Shown: piece after piece, positions 8,326-59,285 of the stretch
Position numbering within the stretch: position 1 is the stretch's first letter
How the letters are laid out: every line of letters starts with the position of its first letter
Source of the DNA: Dictyostelium discoideum
Lineage: Eukaryota
Direction of reading: 5' to 3'
Length of the DNA: 64,000 nucleotides
NCBI GenBank assembly: GCA_000004695.1
Contig: CM000151.3
Location: 4,640,001-4,704,000, forward strand
Position numbers and translations under genes: made by a program
Notes under the pieces: model-generated
Databases searched by the model: none
Seen by the model: only the letters and a program-made list of their open reading frames with translations
Told to the model about the DNA's origin: nothing

Positions 8326-11179
8326 TTATTTTTTAATATTTGTTACAGAGTTATTGCTATTAGTACTACTACTATTAGTTGATAGTGATGGTGAATTACT
8401 ACCACTGCCACTACTATTATCATCTTCAAACATTTTCACTTTATTTTTAACTAAATTGCTATTATTTAATTCTTCAGGAGTGATTACATGTCTCTTTAAA
8501 TCACTACTACTTGAATTACTATTACTATTAAAAGCAAAACCATCACTAGAACTTGATAATGGTGATGATGATGAACTTGTTGTAAATCGTTTCATTATTG
8601 ATGGTGATGCCCTTCCTGTCATTGTTGGTGAAATATCAACTCCACTTCCACCTCCATTACTGGAACTACTATTACTATTTGTTGTTGTTGTTGTAGAAGA
8701 ATTATTTACAGCAGACATTATTGCACTGTTTGGTCTAAATGAAGAATTTGAACTTGAAATTGAACCAGAACTTCTAAATGATGATTGTCTTGATAAAACT
8801 GGTGATGTTGTGGTTGTTGTTGTGGTTGTTAAGGATGAATTGACTGAATTTGTTAATGGTGAATTTGAAGATGGAGGGGATGATGATAATTTCTTTTCAT
8901 TTAAATTTGTAGCTGATAGTTTTGATTGCATTTGTTTTGGTTGAGATGTTGTATGTTGATTTTGTTTAATCTCTTCCAAAGCTAATAATATTGGTGATAA
9001 TTGTTGTTGAAGATTTATATTGATTTTATTAATAATTGAAGATTCCAATTGTTTAATTTCATTTTTAATATCATTAACAATCTTTTGATTAGAGCTATCA
9101 ATATAAGTGAATAATTTAGTTTCCAATTGTTTAAATTCATTCGTCATACTAATTGAAAATGGTGGTGTAATTGGTAATGGTTTATTTGGTGCAACATGTA
9201 AAAGGTTATTTCCACTTCCACTTTTTCCAATTGTTGATAAATTATTTTTTTTATTTTTCTTTTTATTTGATTTCTTTGTTGACTTATTTTTCTTCTTTCT
9301 AACAACCATTGTACCTGTTGCTGAAATTTCTTCATCTTCATTAATTTCATCATCATCTTCTTCTTCTTCTTCTTCTTCCTCATCATCTTCTTCTTCATCT
9401 TCTTCTTCATCATCTTGATCAGATGTAACACCACCATTACCATTACCACTACCTTTCTTTTTACCATGGAAAATAGTTGTACTAAATGGATCAACATCTT
9501 CATCATCCTCATTTTCATCATCATCATCCTCATCATCTTGTTCATCATCTTGTTCATCCTGATTATTATTTAAATGTTTTGAATCTTCCTCTTCTTCTTG
9601 GAAATCTCTACAAGTTGTATAATTTCCTTTGAAACTTAACATACCTTTGGAAGAGGTTGCTAATTTTAAAGAATTATTACAATTGTCCAATTCATCAGAA
9701 GGTGATGATGGTATTGGTGAAATGATTGAAGTTGATAAACCATCTGAACCAATATCTCCACCATTTACAGTTGCATTTGGTGATTGTGGTGATGATGATG
9801 ATGAAGATTGTGAAGTTTGATGTTTTTGTTGTTTTTTTAAATCATCAATTTTCTTTTTCTTAATTTTAAATAATTGATTAACCAAATCTGATAAAACATC
9901 AGGACCTCTATCTTTTTTAAGGAATGGATGACAAAGTAAATCGATTGGTGACGCTCTTTTCTCTGGATCTTTAACTAAACATCTTGCCAAGAAATCATTT
10001 AATAGAGGTGACCATTTTTTAGGTTCAGCAAATGTTGGAGGTGGCCAATTTGGTACCATTTTCATTGCTCTCATTGGTGGCAAATCAATATGTGGTGGTA
10101 AACCATCTGCCATTTCAATGATGGTGATACCTAATGACCAAATATCAGCTTTATAATCGTAATTCTTTTTTAAGATAACCTCAGGTGCCATCCATAATGG
10201 TGTACCAATCATCTCTTTAGATTGATCCAATGCACCATTTAATTTCTCTGAAACACCGAAATCTGCAATTTTCACATCACATCCTTCACTTAGTAATACA
10301 TTTGCTGCCTTTACATCACGATGAATAATATTTTGACTATGTAAATAAATTAAACCTTTGAGTGTGTTTTTCACAACAAATGAAATTTGTGCCTCGTTTA
10401 ATGTTTTCTCTGTTGATTCAATTATATCTCTAATACTACCTAAAGCACAGAAATCCAATAGAATCCAAATATGGGATTCAGTTTGAAGTGAACCAAAATA
10501 AGAGACGATATTTGGAGATTTACAATTTTTTAAAATATTAATTTCATTTTGAAGTGAAACACTCTCTGATTCTTTCATTTCAATAACTTTAATTGCTAAT
10601 GTAAATCCTAAATCTTTATGTGTACCTTTATAAACTGATCCATATGCACCATCACCTAATTTCTCATCCAATATAAAATCATTATGTCCTGTCCATTTCA
10701 AATCAAAATCAACATGCATCTTATGTATAACATTATATGGTACTGATATTTCTGTATTTATATCAAATGTTGATTTAGTTTTCTTATGTGATTTTTTATT
10801 AGTAGTTGTTGCTGCTGTTGTGTTTGGTGATGATATTGCTAATGATGATGATGATGGTGATGATGTTAATGATGATGTTGTTGATGGTGTTGTTGTTGAT
10901 GATGATAATGATGATTCTTTATGATGATGATGATGTTTAAATATTTCAGGTGTTTTTAAAAACTTTTTCTTTTTCTTTTCTTTTAATGGTTGATCATTTG
11001 ATGGTCTTGGTGAAATTAATCCATTTGGAGAAGTTTCACTCGAACCACCATTTGTAGTTTGAATTTCAACATTTTGTTGAGTTGGTGTACTTGGTAATTG
11101 TGAAATTGATGATTGTAATAATTTTGGTGATGAAATAAATTGTGCAATTTTACGTGTTAATTTTCTTGATTCATGAGTA

Positions 11180-15449: not shown

Positions 15450-16193
15450 AACAAAAATAAAGTAATATTGATTTCTTTACCATATAATTACGCAACACCT
15501 CATTTCCAATTTAGGGTTTACAAAAAAATTATATTGTTTTTTATTTTTTTAATTTTTACTTTTTTTTATTTTTTTAATATCATTGCCATATTCAACCACA
15601 CCAATTATATTAAGTTTTTTTTTTTTTTTTTAAAAAAAAAAAATAAAAAAATAAAAAAATAAATAATTAAAAAAAAAAAAAAAAATATATTAAAAAAACG
15701 ATTCCCACACAATATATATTAAGGACACATAAAAACTAGTTGTTATTATTTTTATTATTATATATCACAAACACACTATATTTTGTTTTTTTTATTTTTT
15801 TTTTTTTTATTTTTTATTTTTCATTTTAAAAGACTAACACATTACCAATTTTAATTTTCTTTCATATCACAAAAAAATTTTTTTTTTTTTTTTTTTTTCT
15901 TTTTTCATTTATTTATTTATTTATTCATTTCTTTATTCCTACCCACATTATAATTAATACAAATATTATTATAGGTAAAAAAAAAAAATAATATATACAT
16001 ATCACTGTAACAAAACAAACAACAAAACTATAGTAATATATCAAACCAAAAACAAATAAACGACAATAATAAAAAATTATAATAGTATTAGTATCAGTAG
16101 TAATATCATTATAATTTAAAAAAGTAGCGACTACAATAAAATCAACAAAACAACAACAACAATAATAATCAAATAAATATATAAAATTAAAAA

Positions 16194-17430
16194 ATGATGG
16201 CAAAAACAAAAGGATCATATGAAGTATTTCATTATACAGTTACAAAAGATAAAGTAAATAAAGGTTTATGTGATATTGCAAGATATTTCGTACCAGAATA
16301 TAGAAATTCAAAGGATGAAGATTTAACAATTCAAAAATTAAATGGTGGTATCACCAATGTTTGTATGTATATATATATATATATATATTTATATAACAAA
16401 TTTATAAAACACATATATGATATACTAATATATGTAATTTATTTTTTTAATAATAAAAATATATATAGTATATTTAGTTGAAGATAAAAATATTGAACAA
16501 AAATATAGATATTTACCAGTTGTAATTAGATTATATGGTTATAAATCAGAAGAAATTATAGATAGAAAGAATGAATTAATTATACAAACAGAAGCGGATC
16601 AAAATGGATTAGGTGCTAAATTTTATGGACTTTTCGATAACGGTTGTATTTATGGATTTATTAAAGGTGAACCATTGGCATACGAGGATATTAGTAAACC
16701 AACAATGCAAACATGTATCGCCAAAGAGATTGCACAATGGCACTCAATTGAGATGCCTACAAGAAAGAATCCATCACTTTGGCCAACAATAAAGAAATGG
16801 GCAGCTTTGGCACCAGACGTTTATCCAGTACCAGAAAAGAATGAGTATTATCAATCTATCAATGTAAAGAAAATGATTGAAGAGGGTAAAATGTTGGAGC
16901 AAAGATTGGCTCAATTGAATTCACCAATCGTTTTCTGTCATAATGACCTCCTCAGTGGTAATATCATCTATGATCCATCTCAAAATTGTGCCTCTTTTAT
17001 CGATTTCGAATATGCAAACTACAATTTTAGAGGCTTGGAATTAGGTAATCATTTCAATGAATATGCTGGTTTCGGTCCAGATTATTCACTCTATCCAAAT
17101 AAAGAATCACAAATTCACTTTTTAACAGATTATCATAGATCTCTCTTTAAAACTGAACCAACTCAAGATGAATTAGAAAAATTATATATTGAATCAAATC
17201 AATTTTCATTAGCAAGGTAAATTTTTTAAAAAAAAAAAAATTTCAATTTTATTTGTTTTTATTTTTTTACTAATACTAATTTTATTTTTATTAATAGTCA
17301 TTTATATTGGGGTTTTTGGGCAATTGTTCAAGCTATGAATTCTCAAATCGATTTTGATTATTTAGAATATGGTAAAGCACGTTTTGATAGATATTATGAA
17401 ACTAGAGACCAATTTTTAAATCTCAATTAA
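16194..17430 (+). CDS. Choline/ethanolamine kinase, ~346 aa. CDS join(16194..16362, 16478..17216, 17298..17430).
   Basis: Exon 1 ...LNGGITNV (donor GTATGT at 16363). Exon 2 FEDKNIEQKYRYLPVVIRLYG...FCHNDLLSGNIIYD...FIDFEYANYNFRGLELGNHFNEYAGF (Brenner and choline-kinase motifs; donor GTAAAT at 17217). Exon 3 SHLYWGFWAIVQAMNSQIDFDYLEYGKARFDRYYETRDQFLNLN*. Confidence 0.8.
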
Positions 17431-20134: not shown

Positions 20135-20350
20135 TTCCACTCTGCCTGTGTATTTATAGATTTTCGGACTTGAAAGAATTCTTTATAAATTTGGCGCTCA
20201 CTATCTATATAGTATGAATGCTTGTAATATTAATTTTAATTGATATTGATTCTTATTAATATTACAAACATTCAAACTATACAGATAATGAGCTCCAACT
20301 TTATAAAGAATTCTTTCAAATTAGAAAATCTATAAACACAGGCAGAGTGG
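20135..20350. repeat. Large imperfect palindrome/hairpin (~75-bp arms, ~60-bp loop)
   Basis: ccactctgcctgtgtatttatagattttc...gaaagaattctttataaa pairs with tttataaagaattctttc...gaaaatctataaacacaggcagagtgg. Confidence 0.8.
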
Positions 20351-20469
20351 AACCAAAGATTTTTAAAAGTTCAATTATTTATCAATTCAAAGCTATCAAT
20401 TTTAAATTCATCAAAAAAACAATCAAAAATATAAAATTGGTAAAAAAGTTAAAGAAAATATTCAAAAGA

Positions 20470-53922: not shown

Positions 53923-54309
53923 GGGTTTGAAAAATTAACAAGGGGTTGCCATTAACAAAAAAAAAAAAAAAAAAATTTTTGAGATTTATTAATGACAAAC
54001 ACCCCCTTTGAAAATCAAAAATATCCTTTTTTTTTTTTTTTTAAAAAAATTTTTTTTTAATTTATTTTTTTTGGTCATGGTTGGATTAAAATTTTCAACC
54101 GACCTAAAACACTCATTTTTTATTATTATCTTTTTTTTTTTTGAATTTTTTATTTGAAATCAACTCGATTTTCCACCACAAACAATTTAATAAAAAAAAA
54201 AAATTAAAAATAAATAAATGAGAAAAAAATCAAAAAAATCAAAATAATTAGAAAAACCAAAAAAAAAAAAAAAATAAAATTAAAAATAAAATTGAAAATA
54301 AAATTAAAA

Positions 54310-54359
<50 letters not shown>

Positions 54360-54414
54360 TTTAAAATTAAATAACCCAACATCTTCACAAAATCCAAATA
54401 AAAAATAAAAAATT

Positions 54415-54490
54415 GACAATTTGGGAACAAGGTTTATGTGATTGATCTTCTGGTATCAGAGTTTGTTGTATCAGTTAATTATGACCAGTA
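54415..54490 (+). pseudogene. Decayed partial duplicate of the 5' coding part of the PLAC8 gene (in-frame stops; lacks the parent's first intron)
   Basis: tgggaacaaggtttatgtgattgAtcttctggtatcagagtttgttgtatcagttaattatgaccag|taagt parallels exon1+exon2 of the gene at 56078 (tgggaacacg / gtttatgcgattgcacttcagatatcagagtttgctgtatctcttatttatggccacaag|taact). It contains TGA/TAA stops. Confidence 0.5.
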
Positions 54491-55214
54491 AGTATTTAAA
54501 AATTTAAATATTTAAATAATTTGATTAAATCTCTTATTAATTTTATTTTTTAAAAAATAATAATTATAATAATAACAAGAATAATAGATAATATCTATTT
54601 TATAAAGTACACTAAAAAGATAAATTTGATGGATAATTATCAATTTAAAAAAAAAAAAAAAAAAAAAGATATTTTTTTTTTTTTATTATGACGTGTTAAA
54701 ATTTTAAAAGAAAAAAAAAGTTGTGTTTACTTCACCCATAGAAGTTTCCACATACTGATAATTACTTTTTTTTTTTTTTTTTTGATAAATTGAGATTGTA
54801 TTATAATACTACTAGTATAATACAACCTCAATAAAAATAAAATGAAATATCTGATTAAACCAAACAAAGGTATTTTTTATTTTATGATATTTTACAATTC
54901 TTGAAATATATTTCACTTGAATAATTTAAATAATAAAATTTTTTAGTATGAGTGAAAAAAAAAAAAAAAATCAATCTGATTTAAAAGGATATTTTTATGT
55001 TTATCATAGGTTGAATGTGTGAATAAAATTTTATTTTTTGTAGTGTTAAGCAATGAATAGGTAAGAAACGAGTTTGATTTTTTAATATAATTTCAAATTT
55101 ATTTAAATATATTAATAATAAAATCTAAAAAATCAACATTGTTTTGAAATTATTCAAAAAAAAATAATCAATCTCCCAAATATAATTCAGAAAAATTTGC
55201 AGACTCATTCTTTG

Positions 55215-55263
<49 letters not shown>

Positions 55264-55485
55264 TATTTATTATTTTTTTGTGACGTGAGCAAATTTTTAA
55301 AAAAATTATCAAAATGTGCACAATAACAGTAATTGGTTGTGTAATCCCACTTTATATATTCTCACACACGAATCTTTTCAATGATTATATATTTATATAT
55401 ATATTTACAACTCTATACTATTTATTTATTATTTTTTAAAAACAAAAAAATTTAGTTATGTATGAAAACTTAAAAAAAAAAAAAG

Positions 55486-55522
55486 TTGCTTTGGCTTAGT
55501 TGGTTAAGCGCTTGCCAAGCCA
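55486..55522 (+). other. tRNA 5'-half-like fragment (acceptor/D-arm/anticodon-stem-like) followed by an A-tract; not a complete tRNA gene
   Basis: gttgctttggcTTAGTTGGTTAAGCGCttgccaagcc has a D-loop-like AGTTGGTTAA flanked by GCTT/AAGC. No T-arm (GGTTCGA.TCC) or 3' acceptor half is present. It is flanked by 17-bp direct repeats agttatgtatgaaaact at ~55456 and ~55553. Confidence 0.3.
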
Positions 55523-56077
55523 AAAAAAAGTTAGTTTTTCCAATTCAAAAAAAAGTTATGTATGAAAACTAAATTTTCAATAAAGTTATGAAAAAAAAAC
55601 TAAATTTGATCTTTTTAATGGAAAAATTATTAAAATTTTAATGGTCAATAACTGAAAAAATATTTTAAGAAAAAAAAAAGATATTTTTCTCAAAAAAATA
55701 GGGGAGTGTTGACAAGCATAAATTTTTTTGTACAGTTTTTCATCATTGTCTTAACCGCAAAAAATTTAAAATAAAAAAAAAAAAAAAAAAAAATTTCATC
55801 ACTAAATTCATCATATCTACCCGGGAAAAAAACACAAAAAAAAAAAAAAAAAATGAAAATTTAAAAAAATAATTTAAAATATCCATCATTTTGATATTTT
55901 AAAACTCGTATTGCCAAGAAAAAATTTATTTAATTTTGAATTAAATTATTTATTTTATTTTTCCTCTTTTTTTTTTTTTCTTACGAAAAAAAACTATTTT
56001 TAAAGACAGTAGACTACTTTTTTTTTTTTTTTTTTCTAATCATTGTTAGGTTACACACAAATATATATAAATACATA

Positions 56078-56774
56078 ATGTCAAATTGGGAACACGGTAA
56101 ATATTTTTTTGTTTATATGATGCCATCACATGGCACAAAAAAATAAAAAAAATAAAAAAAAAATAAAAAAGAAACAAAATAAACCAAAAGAAAATATAAT
56201 CGTCATGCACAATATTATTAATATAGTTCTAACGGTTATAAATTACTTTTTTTTTTTTTTTTTTTTTTTTTTATCATCATCATAATTATTTTTATAACCT
56301 ACTTTTTTTATCATAATAAATAGGTTTATGCGATTGCACTTCAGATATCAGAGTTTGCTGTATCTCTTATTTATGGCCACAAGTAACTATCTATAATAAT
56401 TATGATATTTTTAAAATAAATTAATTGAAATATTAACATTTATCTCTGTTTTCTTTAATAATAACTAATTTTTCACATTTATCTTTGTTATTTCTAATGA
56501 AAACCAAATTTTTGACCCCAAGCTTCAAGTTATGCAACAAAGAGCAACCGTAGATGGTCGTCAATGTGAGATTACAGATTGCCTCTTTACCGCTTTATGT
56601 TTCCCATGTGTTACTTGTTTAACTCGTTCACAAATCAGAGAAAAACACGGTATTGAAGGTTCAGGTGTTATGGATTGTTTAACCGTTTGTTATTGTACCC
56701 TTTGTGTTATTCACCAACAAACCATGCAACTCCAAGCTAAAGGTGAAAAACCATCTGGTCTTTTCATGAACTAA
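56078..56774 (+). CDS. PLAC8 (DUF614, cysteine-rich) family protein, ~109 aa, 3 exons. CDS join(56078..56096, 56324..56382, 56523..56774).
   Basis: MSNWEH|GLCDCTSDIRVCCISYLWPQ|LQVMQQRATVDGRQCEITDCLFTALCFPCVTCLTRSQIREKHGIEGSGVMDCLTVCYCTLCVIHQQTMQLQAKGEKPSGLFMN*. Donors GTAAAT and GTAACT; acceptors aaatag and cccaag. Typical PLAC8 Cys pattern (GLCDC...CC...CLF..LC.PC...Q..RE). Confidence 0.75.
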
Positions 56775-56879
56775 ATTATTTTTTTTTTCTTAAATTAAAA
56801 AAAATAAAAAATAAAATAAATTAAATATATAAATAAATAAATATACCGACTTTAAATTTTTTAATAATTTTTTTTTTTT

Positions 56880-57524
56880 TTTTTAAAAAAACTTTTGTTT
56901 ATAAATAAAAAGTTGTTTTAAGTTCTCTCTGACCAATATACTAATAGTCATCAAAATATATTCAGCAACTGGCCAATCAATCAACACAAATGTTTCCACT
57001 GAAGCATTCTTTACTCTTGGTGATTCAACCAATAAATGCTAGTTTTTAGTTGTTAAAGATAATAGGTGTATTTATGGTTTGTCAGTATTAGAAAAAGTTG
57101 GTATCAATATTGGAGTTTAATTTACTGTCCAAAGACTGGTAGTTCCCATCGAATGGTGGTAGAAAATGGAATTACCGCTTAAACAAAATTTTAAAGCAAC
57201 CAAGATTAGATAATTTAAATAAAAATAAAATCAAAGAACCATTAGATAATAATAATAAAAAATTAATGATATTAGAACACAAAGTATAAATTAGAAAAAC
57301 AAAATCAACAACTTGTTACTCATGAGAAAGAGTATCAAGAGAAAATAGCATTATCTAATTCTCATTTTTAGTTATTACAAAAGTTATGTAATCAATTACA
57401 TGGTCAACCTAGCTTCTTCAACAAAAACAAGAACAAGATCAACAAGAACAAGATCAACAACATATTCAACAACCAAATGAAAAACAAGATTTATCGAAAT
57501 TAAATCATAATCCAAATCTAAGTG

Positions 57525-57564
<40 letters not shown>

Positions 57565-57575
57565 AATTCAAATAT
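56880..57575 (+). mobile_element. Degenerate retroelement-like remnant ending in a ~45-nt poly(A) (family not identified)
   Basis: Sequence of normal complexity and non-host composition that translates with frequent stops in all frames (e.g. ...LVVKDNRCIYGLSVLEKVGINIGV*FTVQRLVVPIEWW*KMELPLKQNFKATKIR...). A(45) at 57528-57572 is followed directly by the PLAC8 3' fragment. Confidence 0.25.
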
Positions 57576-57576
57576 T

Positions 57577-57728
57577 TTTGACCCCAAGCTTGAGAAAAAC
57601 ACGGTATTGAAGGTTCGGGTGTTGTGGATTGTTTGACCGTTTGTTATTGTACCCTTTGTGTTATTCACCAACAAACCATGCAACTCCAAGCTAAAGGTGA
57701 AAAACCATCTGGTCTTTTCATGAACTAA
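57577..57728 (+). pseudogene. Partial duplicate of the last PLAC8 exon with a ~118-bp internal deletion
   Basis: tttgaccccaagctt|gagaaaaacacggtattgaaggttcGggtgttGtggattgtttGaccgtttgttattgtaccctttgtgttattcaccaacaaaccatgcaactccaagctaaaggtgaaaaaccatctggtcttttcatgaactaa is near-identical to 56511-56774 apart from the deletion and 3 substitutions. Confidence 0.7.
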
Positions 57729-57739
57729 ATTATTTTTTT

Positions 57740-59285
57740 TCCCCAAATAAAAAATAAAAAATAAAATAAATTAAAATTATTAAATACAAAGAATATGAAA
57801 AAGGAAAAAAGAAAGAGGAATTTTGGAAATTCGATTTTAGTTTATACTCTGTCCACATAATAAAAATTATGAAGTTTTTAGAAAACTTGGTACTATGGTT
57901 TGAAATAAACAAGAAATATTTTAAGAATTATGTTATTGTGAAAGGTGCGATGATCCAAAATTGGTTAAAATATCTAAAGAACAGTTTAAACAAATTAAAA
58001 ATACGTACTCATTGGTTGCTAAAAATCATAAAGTAAACCCAACATTTATTGAAAAAGAAATTGCAAGATATAATAATGAAAATTCAATGTACATAATAAT
58101 AGTTCATAAAGATTTTGTTTTTGTGGTAACGAAGACCCTATCATAGAATTAATCCCTTATTCATTAAATAATAAAACAAGAAGGGAAGAAATTGATTAAA
58201 AAGACGCTACTTTTGCAACATTAAAACAAATGTTTAGAATGCTTAAAGTTTGAATATAAAAAGCATTCCAGATAAATCAATGTCCAAATCTAAAGAAACA
58301 ATTAATGAATGATCAAAGTTAAAAACAAATGTTGAAAATTCATCAGAAGTTTTTGATGCATTAAAAAACGGTTCACTCTACACATCAATGTTATTTTAAA
58401 GTTGTTTGTTCAATCGATCGATTGTAAGAATTTAGAAATCCAGATTTAAATTTCAATGACCATCATACTAGCAAGTGCATTGGTTGTAATATAGGATATA
58501 TTTTAACAAAATTATTCACAACAATTGATATTATTTGCAATAGTTAACCAATTTCAACAAACTCTGAAAGTATTAAGGAAATCAAGAAAAAAAATGAAAT
58601 CACTCACCGATAAATATTTTAATAAATTTGAAATTAGCTTTTTAGATATTTGTGGCCATTCCATTAGTTTTAATTCAGCATCATTATTGCATGGTGGAAC
58701 TTCTATTTCTACTATTTTAGAATCAATTTCAAAATGTCCAACATGCTCATCAATAGAAAGTATTAAATATGGATTAAAAGCTTTTGTTACCATGAATTCA
58801 GATAAAATCGAATACTGAAGATGAAACGGAGAAATTTTTTCACCAATCTTACCATCAGAATTGAATGAATTATTTAAATTCGTAGCAATTCATTATCTTT
58901 TAAAATTCAAACCATAACTACATGTAATCATAAAATAAAAACAAACAATACATAAATAAATAAATAATTTAGGTTCTTCAGCTAATTTAGATGATGTCCT
59001 TTTTCTTGTTGATGAGTCCAATTGAGCAACAGTATTTGGGTGTGATGTTTTTATTTCAACTCTTCTTGGTTTATAAAGAGTTTAAATTTCCTAATCACCA
59101 TAGTTGAAAGGAGGTGTAATGGTAGTTGAAGAGGAAACTATTTTTGAGTATTTAGTGGAACTACTCTTGAATTTGATTTTTTGATTAAACTAGTGTTTAA
59201 TGATCTTGTTTTAAAACCACTAGATTGATTTTAATTTCTAAATCTAATTCTGATTTTAAGTTTTTGACTTTAATCATATTTGCAG

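Follow-up and report, generated by a model that had tools for sequence, protein, structure and literature searches.

Background

Intron gains with an identifiable source are rare. Transfer of an intron between paralogues is one of seven mechanisms proposed for intron gain, and only three indirect cases of it are listed (PMC3443670). In Dictyostelium, a survey of gained introns found sources for only two, neither of which lies in the gene described here (PMC4683709). Our literature search returned no paper that treats the PLAC8 genes of Dictyostelium, and none on the new Dictyostelium assemblies.

Gene fragments beside an intact gene can also be compared with pseudogenes of known type. Processed pseudogenes are recognized by the loss of parental introns, a poly(A) tract 3’ of the copied 3’ UTR, target-site duplications, and a new insertion site that lacks the promoter flank. 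Non-processed duplicated pseudogenes retain introns and flanks, are linked to the parent and carry disabling lesions. In addition, 3’ transduction is known for non-LTR retrotransposons (L1-type elements, and TRE elements in Dictyostelium).

Here, we analysed a 64-kb stretch of the D. discoideum genome (the window, W) in which an intact PLAC8 gene (B) is bracketed by an upstream piece (A) and a downstream piece (C). A preliminary description had taken A and C for partial copies of the present gene, scattered by local duplication or by retroelement 3’ transduction. We consider it probable, instead, that the three pieces were left by remodelling of a single small gene at the DNA level within the D. 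discoideum lineage rather than by retroposition, with recombination with a paralogue producing the A/B arrangement and a later duplication producing C.

Methods

The B locus was compared in seven other assemblies: four of the D. discoideum lineage (L001-L004), D. citrinum (L005), D. dimigraforme (L006) and D. cf. discoideum (L007). The paralogue DDB_G0275243 was compared in D. discoideum (L008), D. citrinum (L010/L011), L012 and D. dimigraforme (L013), and a D. purpureum sequence with a single PLAC8 gene (L009) was added. The tree obtained from flanking genes was ((((W,L004),(L002,L003)),L001),L007),(L005,L006). Positions, collinearity, intron states and deletion structure were observed directly in blastn, tblastn and multiple sequence alignments (MSA). 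In boundary notations below, a slash marks the splice junction.

Results

Gene B lies at 56078-56774 on the forward strand and is predicted to have three exons (56078-56096, 56324-56382 and 56523-56774), separated by intron 1 (56097-56323, 227 nt) and intron 2 (56383-56522, 140 nt), in agreement with the intact 3-exon gene of the preliminary description. Its 109-aa product is identical to P0011 (B0G108_DICDI / EDR41100.1; ‘DUF614 family protein’) and matches Pfam PLAC8 (PF04749) over residues 4-93 of 109 with 61.2 bits, above the curated cut-off of 34.4 (E 1.9e-16). Four further assemblies encode an identical protein, L001-L003 among them despite synonymous differences. Because it is unchanged there although 9 of the 238 exon-3 positions aligned between L001 and the window differ, B is predicted to be a working gene that purifying selection maintains. 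We assume that B is spliced and that A and C are silent; intron 1 has indirect support from its GT-AG ends and from a frame that is open only if it is spliced, and the same protein, curated and predicted, is found in five assemblies. Exon 3 is 95% identical to its citrinum orthologue, and all its informative sites, those at the 3’ end included, show the resident state. The 3’ flank (56775-56872, forward strand), the first ~70 nt of which are duplicated with C, is collinear with D. citrinum (window 56322-56872 against L005 10018-10571).

Within the 64 kb, tblastn and blastn found PLAC8-like sequence only at A, B and C. The chimeric models that gene callers have produced (P0017, and a 137-aa model in L004) might lead one to regard the fragments as exons of separate intact paralogous genes, or as assembly artefacts. 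We regard this as scarcely credible, given that the 64 kb hold no further PLAC8-like exon, that A has in-frame stops and C is without any 5’ exon, and that the arrangement recurs in independent assemblies.

Fragment A (54413-54487, forward strand) is a contiguous 75-nt sequence that lacks intron 1 and carries stops (TGA, TAA and TGA), both as originally reported. Its identity is 81% with the 5’ coding sequence of B after splicing and 88.0%, over its 75 nt, with exon 1 of the D. citrinum orthologue (blastn: 89.2% over 74 nt, E 7.5e-24). Upstream, between the arrestin-domain gene and A, collinearity identifies the ancestral 5’ intergenic flank of the resident PLAC8 gene (54027-54412, forward strand). 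Downstream, a GTAAGT donor straight after CCA opens ~80 nt left over from the start of the ancestral intron (54488-54570, forward strand). Flank, exon and intron start together (54027-54570) are collinear with L005 9617-10154 (E 5e-88), window 53713-54525 matches D. cf. discoideum L007 9393-10121 (E 2e-156), and the region is also collinear with D. dimigraforme (L006). The donor context, CCA/GTAAGTAT, is the same in L005 and L006, whereas the donor of B is situated 3 nt further downstream (CCA CAA/GT); A does not, as had been thought, keep the intron-2 donor of a parent. Thus, A and the outgroup resident genes have in common the absence of intron 1, the Ser codon AGT and a donor directly after CCA.

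On account of its orthologous position, ancestral flank and ancestral donor, A is evidently the orphaned and decayed first exon of the ancestral gene, and the view of it as a degenerate copy of the present gene is abandoned. The missing intron 1 would be explained by an ancestral gene that never had it, not by RNA processing. A is present in all five D. discoideum-lineage assemblies (W and L001-L004), with disabling lesions that vary by lineage, and no downstream exon for it was found by tblastn of the 64 kb. The TAA stop and a TGG-to-TGA stop are common to the window and L004. Further damage in the window (ATG to TTG, TGT to TGA) falls within a cluster of 10 mismatches against the otherwise identical L004, which may be base-calling errors beside a 44-nt A-run.

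In lacking one of the parent’s introns, A resembles processed or semi-processed retrocopies, and a copy reverse-transcribed from part-spliced pre-mRNA, with intron 1 removed and intron 2 kept, would account for a fragment without intron 1 that yet runs into intron-like sequence past a GT donor. Collinearity refutes this: the ~390 nt upstream of A are the orthologous promoter region, collinear with the intergenic region of three sister lineages, and A occupies the ancestral position rather than a new insertion site. In addition, its donor is the ancestral one, 3 nt upstream of that of B, and the intron-1-less structure is that of the normal gene in the orthologues of those three lineages. A also keeps its GT donor and ~80 nt of intron, and has no poly(A) tail; there is no A-run after A or after the flank of C, and C itself retains 15 nt of intron 2 in the window. 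Target-site duplications were seen neither by eye nor in a repeat scan of 54480-56080, which is weak evidence because both fragments have eroded, AT-rich edges. A retrocopy origin of A is therefore most improbable.

The 5’ half of B differs from the resident type. Its 5’ flank (55906-56077, forward strand) is like the proximal 5’ flank of the paralogue, with a T-run and a TAATCA.T.TTAGGTT motif that align with L008, L011 and L012, while A, L005 and L007 have a common 5’ flank different from that of B. Searching 55906-56385 against L010/L011 by blastn gave E 5e-31 and E 4e-26, with the exons included in the matches; the flank alone scored 40 bits against the paralogue, marginally above the 36 bits of a reversed-sequence control. 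Codon 2 of B is TCA (Ser2), the paralogue type. Intron 1 is absent from the resident orthologues in L005, L006 and L007, where the sequence is contiguous (GGAACA(A/C)GGTTTATG), and is absent too from A and from the single D. purpureum PLAC8 gene (L009; synteny not examined). The paralogue has an intron at exactly CACG/GT, the site and phase of B intron 1, in L008, L010/L011, L012 and L013, that is, in every species examined, including two outgroup species. Intron 1 of B is thus absent from the orthologues and from the ancestral state, and an earlier paralogue intron occupies the same site and phase. The two introns are alike only at their ends (GTAAATATTTT... and a TCTAAC branch region), and away from them the 227 nt of B are AT-rich sequence that cannot be aligned with the paralogue.

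Since a paralogue-like 5’ flank, codon 2 and intron 1 site are combined with a resident-type last exon, the comparison suggests that B is a chimera which took intron 1 and its 5’ end from the paralogue, and that it is a candidate for intron transfer between paralogues. Coding sites in exons 1-2 are not decisive for origin. The intron-2 boundary of B (CCA CAA/GT) and the intron sequence match L008/L012 (83% in the MSA) better than the outgroup resident introns (58-63%). The outgroup paralogues have no intron 2, so this intron could have moved from B to the paralogue instead. In the sister lineage L007, a compact single gene resembles B in having TCT and the CAA/GT boundary, which would make it a secondary A x B recombinant unless the events took place in another order than the one proposed below.

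The adjacency and shared orientation of A and B could also be produced by a simple tandem duplication. A would then be the decayed upstream copy, and B would later have gained intron 1 and the shifted intron-2 boundary de novo, with no input from the paralogue. B intron 1 is, after all, mostly unalignable with the paralogue intron, and GGT occurs on both sides of it (CAC GGT aaat...aata GGT TTA), as after an insertion with a 3-nt duplication. Such a history requires an independent gain at the very site and phase occupied in the paralogue of every species examined, as well as convergence on codon 2 TCA and on a paralogue-type proximal flank. No second copy of the resident 5’ flank, exon 2 or 3’ flank was found between A and B. 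We judge it unlikely, and retain paralogue recombination as the preferred account of A and B.

The DNA between A and B (spacer 1; 54571-55905, no strand assigned) is lineage-specific and absent from the compact loci L005-L007. Sensitive blastn searches for its origin against L005-L007 and the upstream regions of the paralogue gave matches only at the level of the reversed-sequence control. Spacer 1 has an internal ~100-nt repeat (54618-54713 matching 55189-55305) and a strain-specific 84-nt insertion (55470-55553) with a 16-nt flanking duplication. Searches of 53.7-59.5 kb with Rfam and ARAGORN gave neither tRNAs nor other structured RNAs, and a tRNA-looking hairpin at 55487-55520 was not a tRNA by either.

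Two other sources of the A-B arrangement were considered and rejected. A one-step copy from the paralogue locus was looked for through the tRNA-Lys(UUU) that lies upstream of the paralogue in all species, and the window contains no relic of it. The resident gene and the paralogue are 40 kb apart and inverted in L007/L012; an inversion between them would not juxtapose A and B, nor would the GH18 gene, the oxygenase gene and Prp8 keep their present orientation.

Fragment C (57574-57796, forward strand) was delimited by blastn and block structure as an eroded, unprocessed partial duplicate of B. It begins with 15 nt of the 3’ end of intron 2 plus CTT (57574-57591, identical to B 56508-56525 at 18 of 18 positions), continues with the final 137 nt of exon 3 up to and including the stop (57592-57728), and ends in ~70 nt of 3’ flank. 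Window 57592-57746 is 95% identical to B 56638-56792, and the similarity of the flanks (88-92% for 70 nt, then background) extends to ~57796; blastn aligns 56638-56844 with 57592-57796 at 92.3% (E 3e-81). The near-identical last exon noted earlier is thus real, and the internal deletion, put at ~118 bp, is one of 112 bp (B 56526-56637).

Fuller copies of C occur in L002 (13367-13976) and L003 (13551-14148). They begin within intron 1, extend ~125 nt beyond the stop, keep parts of introns 1 and 2, and carry a 2-nt frameshift and a scrambled exon-3 start. The window lacks the equivalents of L003 13337-13750 and 13770-13879. Over the final 182 nt of exon 3, the fuller copies differ from B at 0 and 1 positions; as the same stretch is invariant among the B genes of the window, L002 and L003, gene conversion and simple conservation are indistinguishable here. 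C is absent from L001 and from the compact loci, and strain L002 has an extra, inverted exon-2 fragment.

C is recognizable by sequence as the remnant of a ~610-bp unprocessed, DNA-level duplicate of B, given the intron sequence retained in the window (18/18) and introns 1 and 2 in L002/L003. It retains introns and flank, is linked to its parent in the same orientation and carries disabling lesions, and like other non-processed duplicated pseudogenes its copies have frameshifts and deletions, with a completeness that varies by strain. It differs from them in that the duplicate was partial from the start, beginning inside intron 1, and was not strictly tandem, with ~2.5 kb of unrelated DNA between it and B.

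An A-run does lie 5’ of C, although it measures 39 nt (57525-57563) and not the 45 nt first given. In L002/L003 the homologous A-run is ~200 nt from the fuller, intron-containing copy, and the present closeness would be due to a deletion of about 414 bp, not to retroposition or transduction as had been proposed. A- or T-runs of at least 30 nt number 19 in the window, or one about every 3.4 kb, so one nearby is unremarkable.

The A-run ends a decayed coding-like sequence (56950-57563, forward strand) in spacer 2, between B and C. This element is homologous to L002 11737-13163 and L003 11731-13336, both of which have an extra ~850-nt low-complexity block. It has no second copy within the window; a partial inverted copy (L002 16140-16504, L003 16306-16843) is the sole other one among the sequences compared. 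Neither the element nor the spacer ORFs gave a reverse transcriptase, endonuclease, integrase, gag or protease match in Pfam (E up to 0.1; stop-free ORF pieces and a stitched translation), and the stitched pseudo-translation of 56950-57563 had no homologue among 5.8 billion proteins. With no transposable-element domain, homologue or window copy, the label ‘retroelement-like’ could not be sustained. Gene callers have built chimeric models in this area: P0017 runs from the PLAC8 gene into 56950-57042, and the 137-aa model in L004 begins inside the C region.

These results bear on the original reading of A and C as scattered partial copies. C is indeed a local duplicate of B, a further PLAC8 fragment exists in L002, and in the window C adjoins an A-run and non-genic sequence, as after 3’ transduction; the insertion at 55470-55553 with its flanking duplication shows that retroposition-like events occur nearby. 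Repeated local duplication accordingly stands for C and for the extra L002 fragment. It fails for A, an ancestral relic with ancestral rather than B-type states at an orthologous position. Transduction needs the A-run 3’ of the transduced segment, whereas here it is 5’; retroelement ORFs, domains and homologues were not found in the searches above; and C keeps intron sequence, its fuller forms standing apart from an A-run of a kind frequent in the window. Overall, we find scattering of A and C as copies of the present gene very unlikely, and DNA-level remodelling remains the account followed below.

Further downstream lie relics of other genes. One, from an unrelated ‘gene X’ (57925-58143, forward strand; ORF ELCYCERCDDPK...), matches L003 14711-14893. 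The gene continues in L003 to ~15840, has a counterpart at L001 11255-11932 and matches no Pfam family. The other (58968-59271, reverse strand) is what remains, as a pseudogene, of a gene for a 517-aa protein, of which it covers the C-terminal third (aa 369-504). It was detected by tblastn with an L012 ORF (E 6e-11) and has stops and frameshifts; blastn aligns 58968-59183 with L012 4447-4693 at 75.7%. The relic breaks off at the point from which the sequence is again collinear with the GH18 promoter region. A protein search with this 517-aa neighbour of the L012 paralogue gave no match, its own self-match included, and was thus uninformative.

Discussion

From these observations we infer an order of events and a molecular route. 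The ancestral state, still found in D. citrinum and D. dimigraforme, where the gene is single-copy, would have been a two-exon PLAC8 gene without intron 1, separated by ~450 bp from the arrestin-domain gene and by ~300 bp from the GH18 gene, its sole intron following ...TGG CCA. Recombination or repair with the paralogue lineage (DDB_G0275243) would then have placed a new 5’ module before the resident last exon. This module would have carried intron 1 together with an exon 1 that has Ser2 (TCA) and a proximal promoter flank. Exon 2 and intron 2 may have arrived with the module, and ~1.3 kb of other DNA would have come in simultaneously. B would be the resulting chimera, and A what was left behind: the former exon 1, still preceded by its promoter flank and followed by the first ~80 nt of its intron, with later decay that was lineage-specific. 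A break in the resident intron followed by one-ended invasion of the paralogue and end-joining could have produced this, as could gene conversion after a tandem duplication; our data do not discriminate between the two routes.

C would have originated after the L001 lineage split, when ~610 bp of B were duplicated as genomic DNA ~3 kb downstream. The copy was probably already disabled in the ancestor of the sampled strains. In the window strain, two deletions (~414 bp and 112 bp) would have removed all of it except the 3’ end, one of them setting the remnant beside a pre-existing A-run.

Measured against intron transfer between paralogues, the locus agrees in that intron 1 is absent from the orthologues and from fossil exon A and present in paralogues at the identical site and phase, and in that the adjoining codon 2 and proximal flank of B are paralogue-type. 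It departs in that the old exon was displaced rather than overwritten and survives as a fossil, so the event would not have been a clean conversion; in addition, B intron 1 is weakly similar to the donor, and intron 2 may have moved in either direction.

Intron content also varies across the family. In the outgroup species, the resident gene has intron 2 only and the paralogue intron 1 only, and in D. discoideum both introns are found in both genes. The L001 sister lineage has an extra intron, in which intron 2 is duplicated behind an 18-nt mini-exon. It is conceivable, at slightly less than an even chance in our estimation, that the family is a natural series of intron turnover by DNA-level recombination, with fossil A fixing the direction, and that L007 may have re-lost intron 1 via A-B recombination.

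Conclusions

As a genome feature, the locus is ordinary: pseudogene debris around a small gene in a region that is structurally unstable between strains. It is relevant to annotation, as gene callers made chimeric models over the fragments (e.g. P0017), and the reference sequence of relic A may hold errors beside the long A-run. It is of value for the evolution of gene structure, because one set of closely related genomes shows the recipient gene together with the candidate donor paralogue and the displaced ancestral exon. If the proposed transfer is true, intron 1 of B would be among the few paralogue-transfer intron gains for which the donor and the pre-transfer state are both visible.

The PLAC8 locus and its orthologues

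G+C content in the window is about 22%, and long A and T runs are abundant (19 of at least 30 nt). Its intact three-exon PLAC8 gene (gene B, 56078-56774) was confirmed. Exon 1 (56078-56096, 19 nt), exon 2 (56324-56382, 59 nt) and exon 3 (56523-56774, 252 nt) are separated by intron 1 (56097-56323, 227 nt) and intron 2 (56383-56522, 140 nt). The spliced product is exactly P0011 (B0G108_DICDI / EDR41100.1, a "DUF614 family protein" of Dictyostelium discoideum AX4) and matches Pfam PLAC8 with an E-value of 1.9e-16. Neighboring genes encode an acyltransferase, a C2-arrestin protein (minus strand, start near 53.76 kb), a GH18 protein (beginning at about 59.5 kb), a 2OG-Fe(II) oxygenase and Prp8. 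A tblastn search of the 64 kb with the B protein found PLAC8-like sequence at three sites only, namely B itself, an upstream fragment (A, 54413-54487) and a downstream fragment (C, matched at 57594-57725).

The orthologous locus was retrieved from seven other assemblies by exact-protein look-up. Three are from D. discoideum (L002, L003 and L004, the last essentially identical to the window), two from "D. cf. discoideum" lineages (L001, assembly GCA_054859205, and L007), and one each from D. citrinum (L005) and D. dimigraforme (L006). Loci carrying the paralogue DDB_G0275243 and its orthologues (L008, L010/L011, L012 and L013) and the single PLAC8 gene of D. purpureum (L009) were also compared. 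A local tree from the flanking genes places the loci as ((((window,L004),(L002,L003)),L001),L007),(L005,L006). In L005, L006 and L007 the locus is compact, consisting of the arrestin gene, about 450 bp, PLAC8, 200-300 bp and GH18.

Gene B appears to be functional, judging from the identical B protein encoded by L001, L002 and L003, even though 9 of the 238 exon-3 positions that align differ between L001 and the window. Across the B genes of L002, L003 and the window, the final 182 nt of exon 3 (56593-56774) are invariant, unlike the first 70 nt, which vary at synonymous sites; codon bias, conversion or some other constraint may underlie this pattern. PLAC8 fragments mislead gene callers: the annotation of one assembly joins PLAC8 exon 3 to downstream spacer sequence at 56950-57042, yielding a 135-aa chimeric model (P0017, KAM9945359.1), and a second model, in L004, begins inside the C region.

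Origin of fragment A

Fragment A had been described as a degenerate copy of the 5' coding part of B that lacks intron 1, carries stops and keeps the donor of intron 2. The first two features were borne out, in that GTAAGT directly follows the uninterrupted coding stretch and the translation reads LTIWEQGLCD*SSGIRVCCIS*L*P. The identity of A is 81-84% to the spliced 5' coding sequence of B and 88-92% to D. citrinum exon 1. Positions 54027-54570 are collinear with L005 from the intergenic region through exon 1 into the initial ~80 nt of the intron (E-value of 5e-88), and are collinear with L006 and L007 as well. The PLAC8 genes of these three loci lack intron 1, because ...GGAACA(A/C)GGTTTATGCGATTG is contiguous in them. 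This accounts for the missing intron 1 of A: the ancestral gene had none. In alignments, A and its flank carry the upstream motif typical of the resident gene, i.e., the PLAC8 gene of this locus (...TATCTTTTAATTT..ATCATCA..ACAAATACAAATAAAA-ATG). Moreover, A shares with L005 and L006 an AGT serine codon and a donor directly after CCA (CCA|GTAAGTAT), whereas in B the upstream flank differs, the serine codon is TCT and the donor follows CCA CAA. The donor of A is thus not that of B, and by these comparisons A is an ancestral exon rather than a copy of the present gene.

Each of the five D. discoideum-lineage assemblies contains fragment A, with lesions that are lineage-specific: L002 and L003 have a stop at codon 6, L001 has lost 15 nt, and the window and L004 carry TAA and TGA stops. 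These differing lesions indicate that A was already dispensable in the common ancestor of the five. Over 14 kb, the window differs from L004 only in homopolymer lengths and by 18 mismatches, 17 of which lie in 54043-54445, beside long A and T runs and within A. At sites within A (ATG, AAT and TGT), L004 agrees with the outgroup strain L001 and not with the window, whose bases in this interval may be sequencing errors.

Composition of gene B

The 5' part of B resembles the paralogue. All orthologues of the paralogue, including those of two outgroup species, have an intron at the exact site of B intron 1 (CACG|GT), and they share with B the start ATG TCA (Ser2) and a proximal flank motif (T-run, TAATCA.T.TTAGGTT). 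The intron 2 boundary of B is that of intron 2 in L008 and L012. In a multiple alignment, B intron 2 has 83% identity to L008, and for the L005 and L006 resident introns the value is 58-63%; with a gap-tolerant pairwise aligner, all introns of the CAA|GT type show 89-91% identity to one another. Exon 3 of B is of the resident type at every informative site, as far as ...CCATCTGGTCTTTTCATGAAC. The paralogue-like states of the 5' part, taken with a resident-type exon 3, indicate that B joins a paralogue-like 5' part to the resident 3' exon, and we regard it as a rebuilt gene.

Only the ends of intron 1 can be aligned between B and the paralogue, the 5' flank of B alone scores barely above a reversed control against the paralogue, and intron 2 is missing from the outgroup paralogues. 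Only for intron 1 is it clear which way the intron moved, namely from the paralogue to B.

No source was detected for the 1.3 kb between A and B (spacer 1, 54571-55905) in comparisons with L005, L006, L007 and the paralogue upstream regions. This spacer contains a ~100-nt segment repeated about 590 nt apart (54618-54713 and 55189-55305; ...AAATTTG..., A-run, GATATTT..TGACGTG..AAATTTTTAAAA), which hints that it grew partly via local duplication. It also contains an 84-nt insertion (55470-55553) between 16-nt direct repeats (AGTTATGTATGAAAAC, 55454-55469 and 55554-55569), carried by the window and L004, with an empty site in L001, L002 and L003. The insertion has A-runs and a hairpin (TTGGCTT...AAGCCAA) resembling a tRNA 5' half, with no match by ARAGORN or Rfam. 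It may be a small retroposition-type event, and has no relation to the PLAC8 fragments.

Origin of fragment C and the adjacent element

The preliminary description presented C as a near-identical last-exon copy with a ~118-bp deletion, placed after a 45-nt poly(A), and proposed possible mediation by neighboring retroelement-like sequence. The near-identity held, at 95% between 57592-57746 and B 56638-56792, and similarity in the flank continues until about 57796. The internal deletion measures 112 bp, and the preceding A-run is 39 nt (57525-57563). Positions 57574-57591 correspond exactly to B 56508-56525, i.e., CTT preceded by the final 15 nt of intron 2.

In L002 and L003, the PLAC8-GH18 spacer is 6.1-6.5 kb and contains a second copy of B (L002 13367-13976; L003 13551-14148) running from inside intron 1 to ~125 nt beyond the stop. 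This copy is a pseudogene too: it carries a 2-nt frameshift, and the first 70 nt of its exon 3 are scrambled. Over the final 182 nt of that exon it has no mismatches to B in L003 and one in L002. The window lacks L003 13337-13750 and 13770-13879. In L002 and L003, about 200 nt separate the same A-run (35 and 23 nt) from the second copy, and the first deletion relative to L003 ends at this A-run, which closes the element in spacer 2 (56950-57563). Fragment C is absent from L001 and the compact loci. The retained intron sequence, the fuller copies in L002 and L003 and the deletions argue that C is an eroded, unprocessed, partial duplicate of B, and its position after the poly(A) is a by-product of deletion. 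Retrocopy and 3'-transduction models do not pass the tests that define them. Among the strains compared, L002 alone has an inverted PLAC8 fragment (20323-20434, minus strand), comprising exon 2 with acceptor and donor, between the oxygenase gene and Prp8.

The spacer-2 element has the appearance of decayed coding sequence. No transposable-element domain was found in it with Pfam, nor was a protein homologue found, and no second copy was found within the window. Retroelement mediation is unsupported, although the stretch could conceivably derive from a known element's non-coding portion. L002 and L003 each have, besides the direct copy, a partial inverted one further downstream (L002 11737-13163 with 16140-16504; L003 11731-13336 with 16306-16843), and the two copies bracket the second PLAC8 copy and "gene X". 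The left copy includes a ~850-nt low-complexity block that is missing in the window and in the inverted copy. In the window, relics of two unrelated genes occupy 57925-58143 (gene X, plus strand) and 58968-59271 (minus strand, just upstream of GH18). The latter is the C-terminal third of a gene for a 517-aa protein, intact in strain ACTFIZ (L012 4405-5958), where it is convergent to the PLAC8 paralogue.

Order of events and intron turnover

The TCT codon with the CAA|GT boundary is common to B, L007 and L012, and AGT occurs in A, L005, L006, L008, L011 and L013. This distribution suggests that A was stranded before TCT and CAA|GT arose, and that both states are older than the L007 split. The compact L007 gene has the resident flank and no intron 1, but its intron and the 3' end of its exon 1 are B-like. 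If A was stranded first, this gene would most simply be a secondary A x B recombinant, later homogenized with L012.

The 3' halves of the L007 and L012 introns are identical over about 65 nt. In ACTFIZ, L007 10283-10340 and L012 3440-3500 also share an odd patch of synonymous codons ending in G or C where the last exon begins (GGCAGACAGTGCGA.ATCAC). The shared patch and identical intron halves indicate recent gene conversion between the resident gene and the paralogue, which lie ~40 kb apart in ACTFIZ versus ~300 kb in D. discoideum (L003 and L008, same contig).

Intron positions also vary among close relatives. The paralogues of D. citrinum (L011 3001-3501) and D. dimigraforme (L013 2501-3078) have intron 1 and lack intron 2, and D. 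purpureum PLAC8 (L009 6001-6412) has neither, with its own intron after ...QQRA. The L001 orthologue (10256-10476) has four exons and an unchanged protein: exon 2 and intron 2 are followed by an 18-nt mini-exon (CTTCAAGTTATGCAACAA) and a duplicate of the 5' part of intron 2 ending ...ccacag|AGAGCAACC. This extra intron looks like a local duplication of the existing one.

Relation to known systems

Apart from small numerical corrections and the donor of A, the arrangement as originally observed is confirmed. Its interpretation is partly supported, since local duplication accounts for C, an unprocessed duplicate of B, but not for A, an ancestral exon. Fragment C is a standard case of a non-processed pseudogene fragment. 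For the A/B pair, the model of intron gain that fits is "intron transfer"; unusually, the displaced exon has survived here. Just three indirect cases of intron transfer as a mechanism are given in a review (PMC3443670), and a Dictyostelium survey found sources for just two gained introns, neither of them in this gene (PMC4683709). Both kinds are already known, and the PLAC8 locus is a further member. Overall the locus is of modest weight, with some use for the study of intron and gene-structure turnover.
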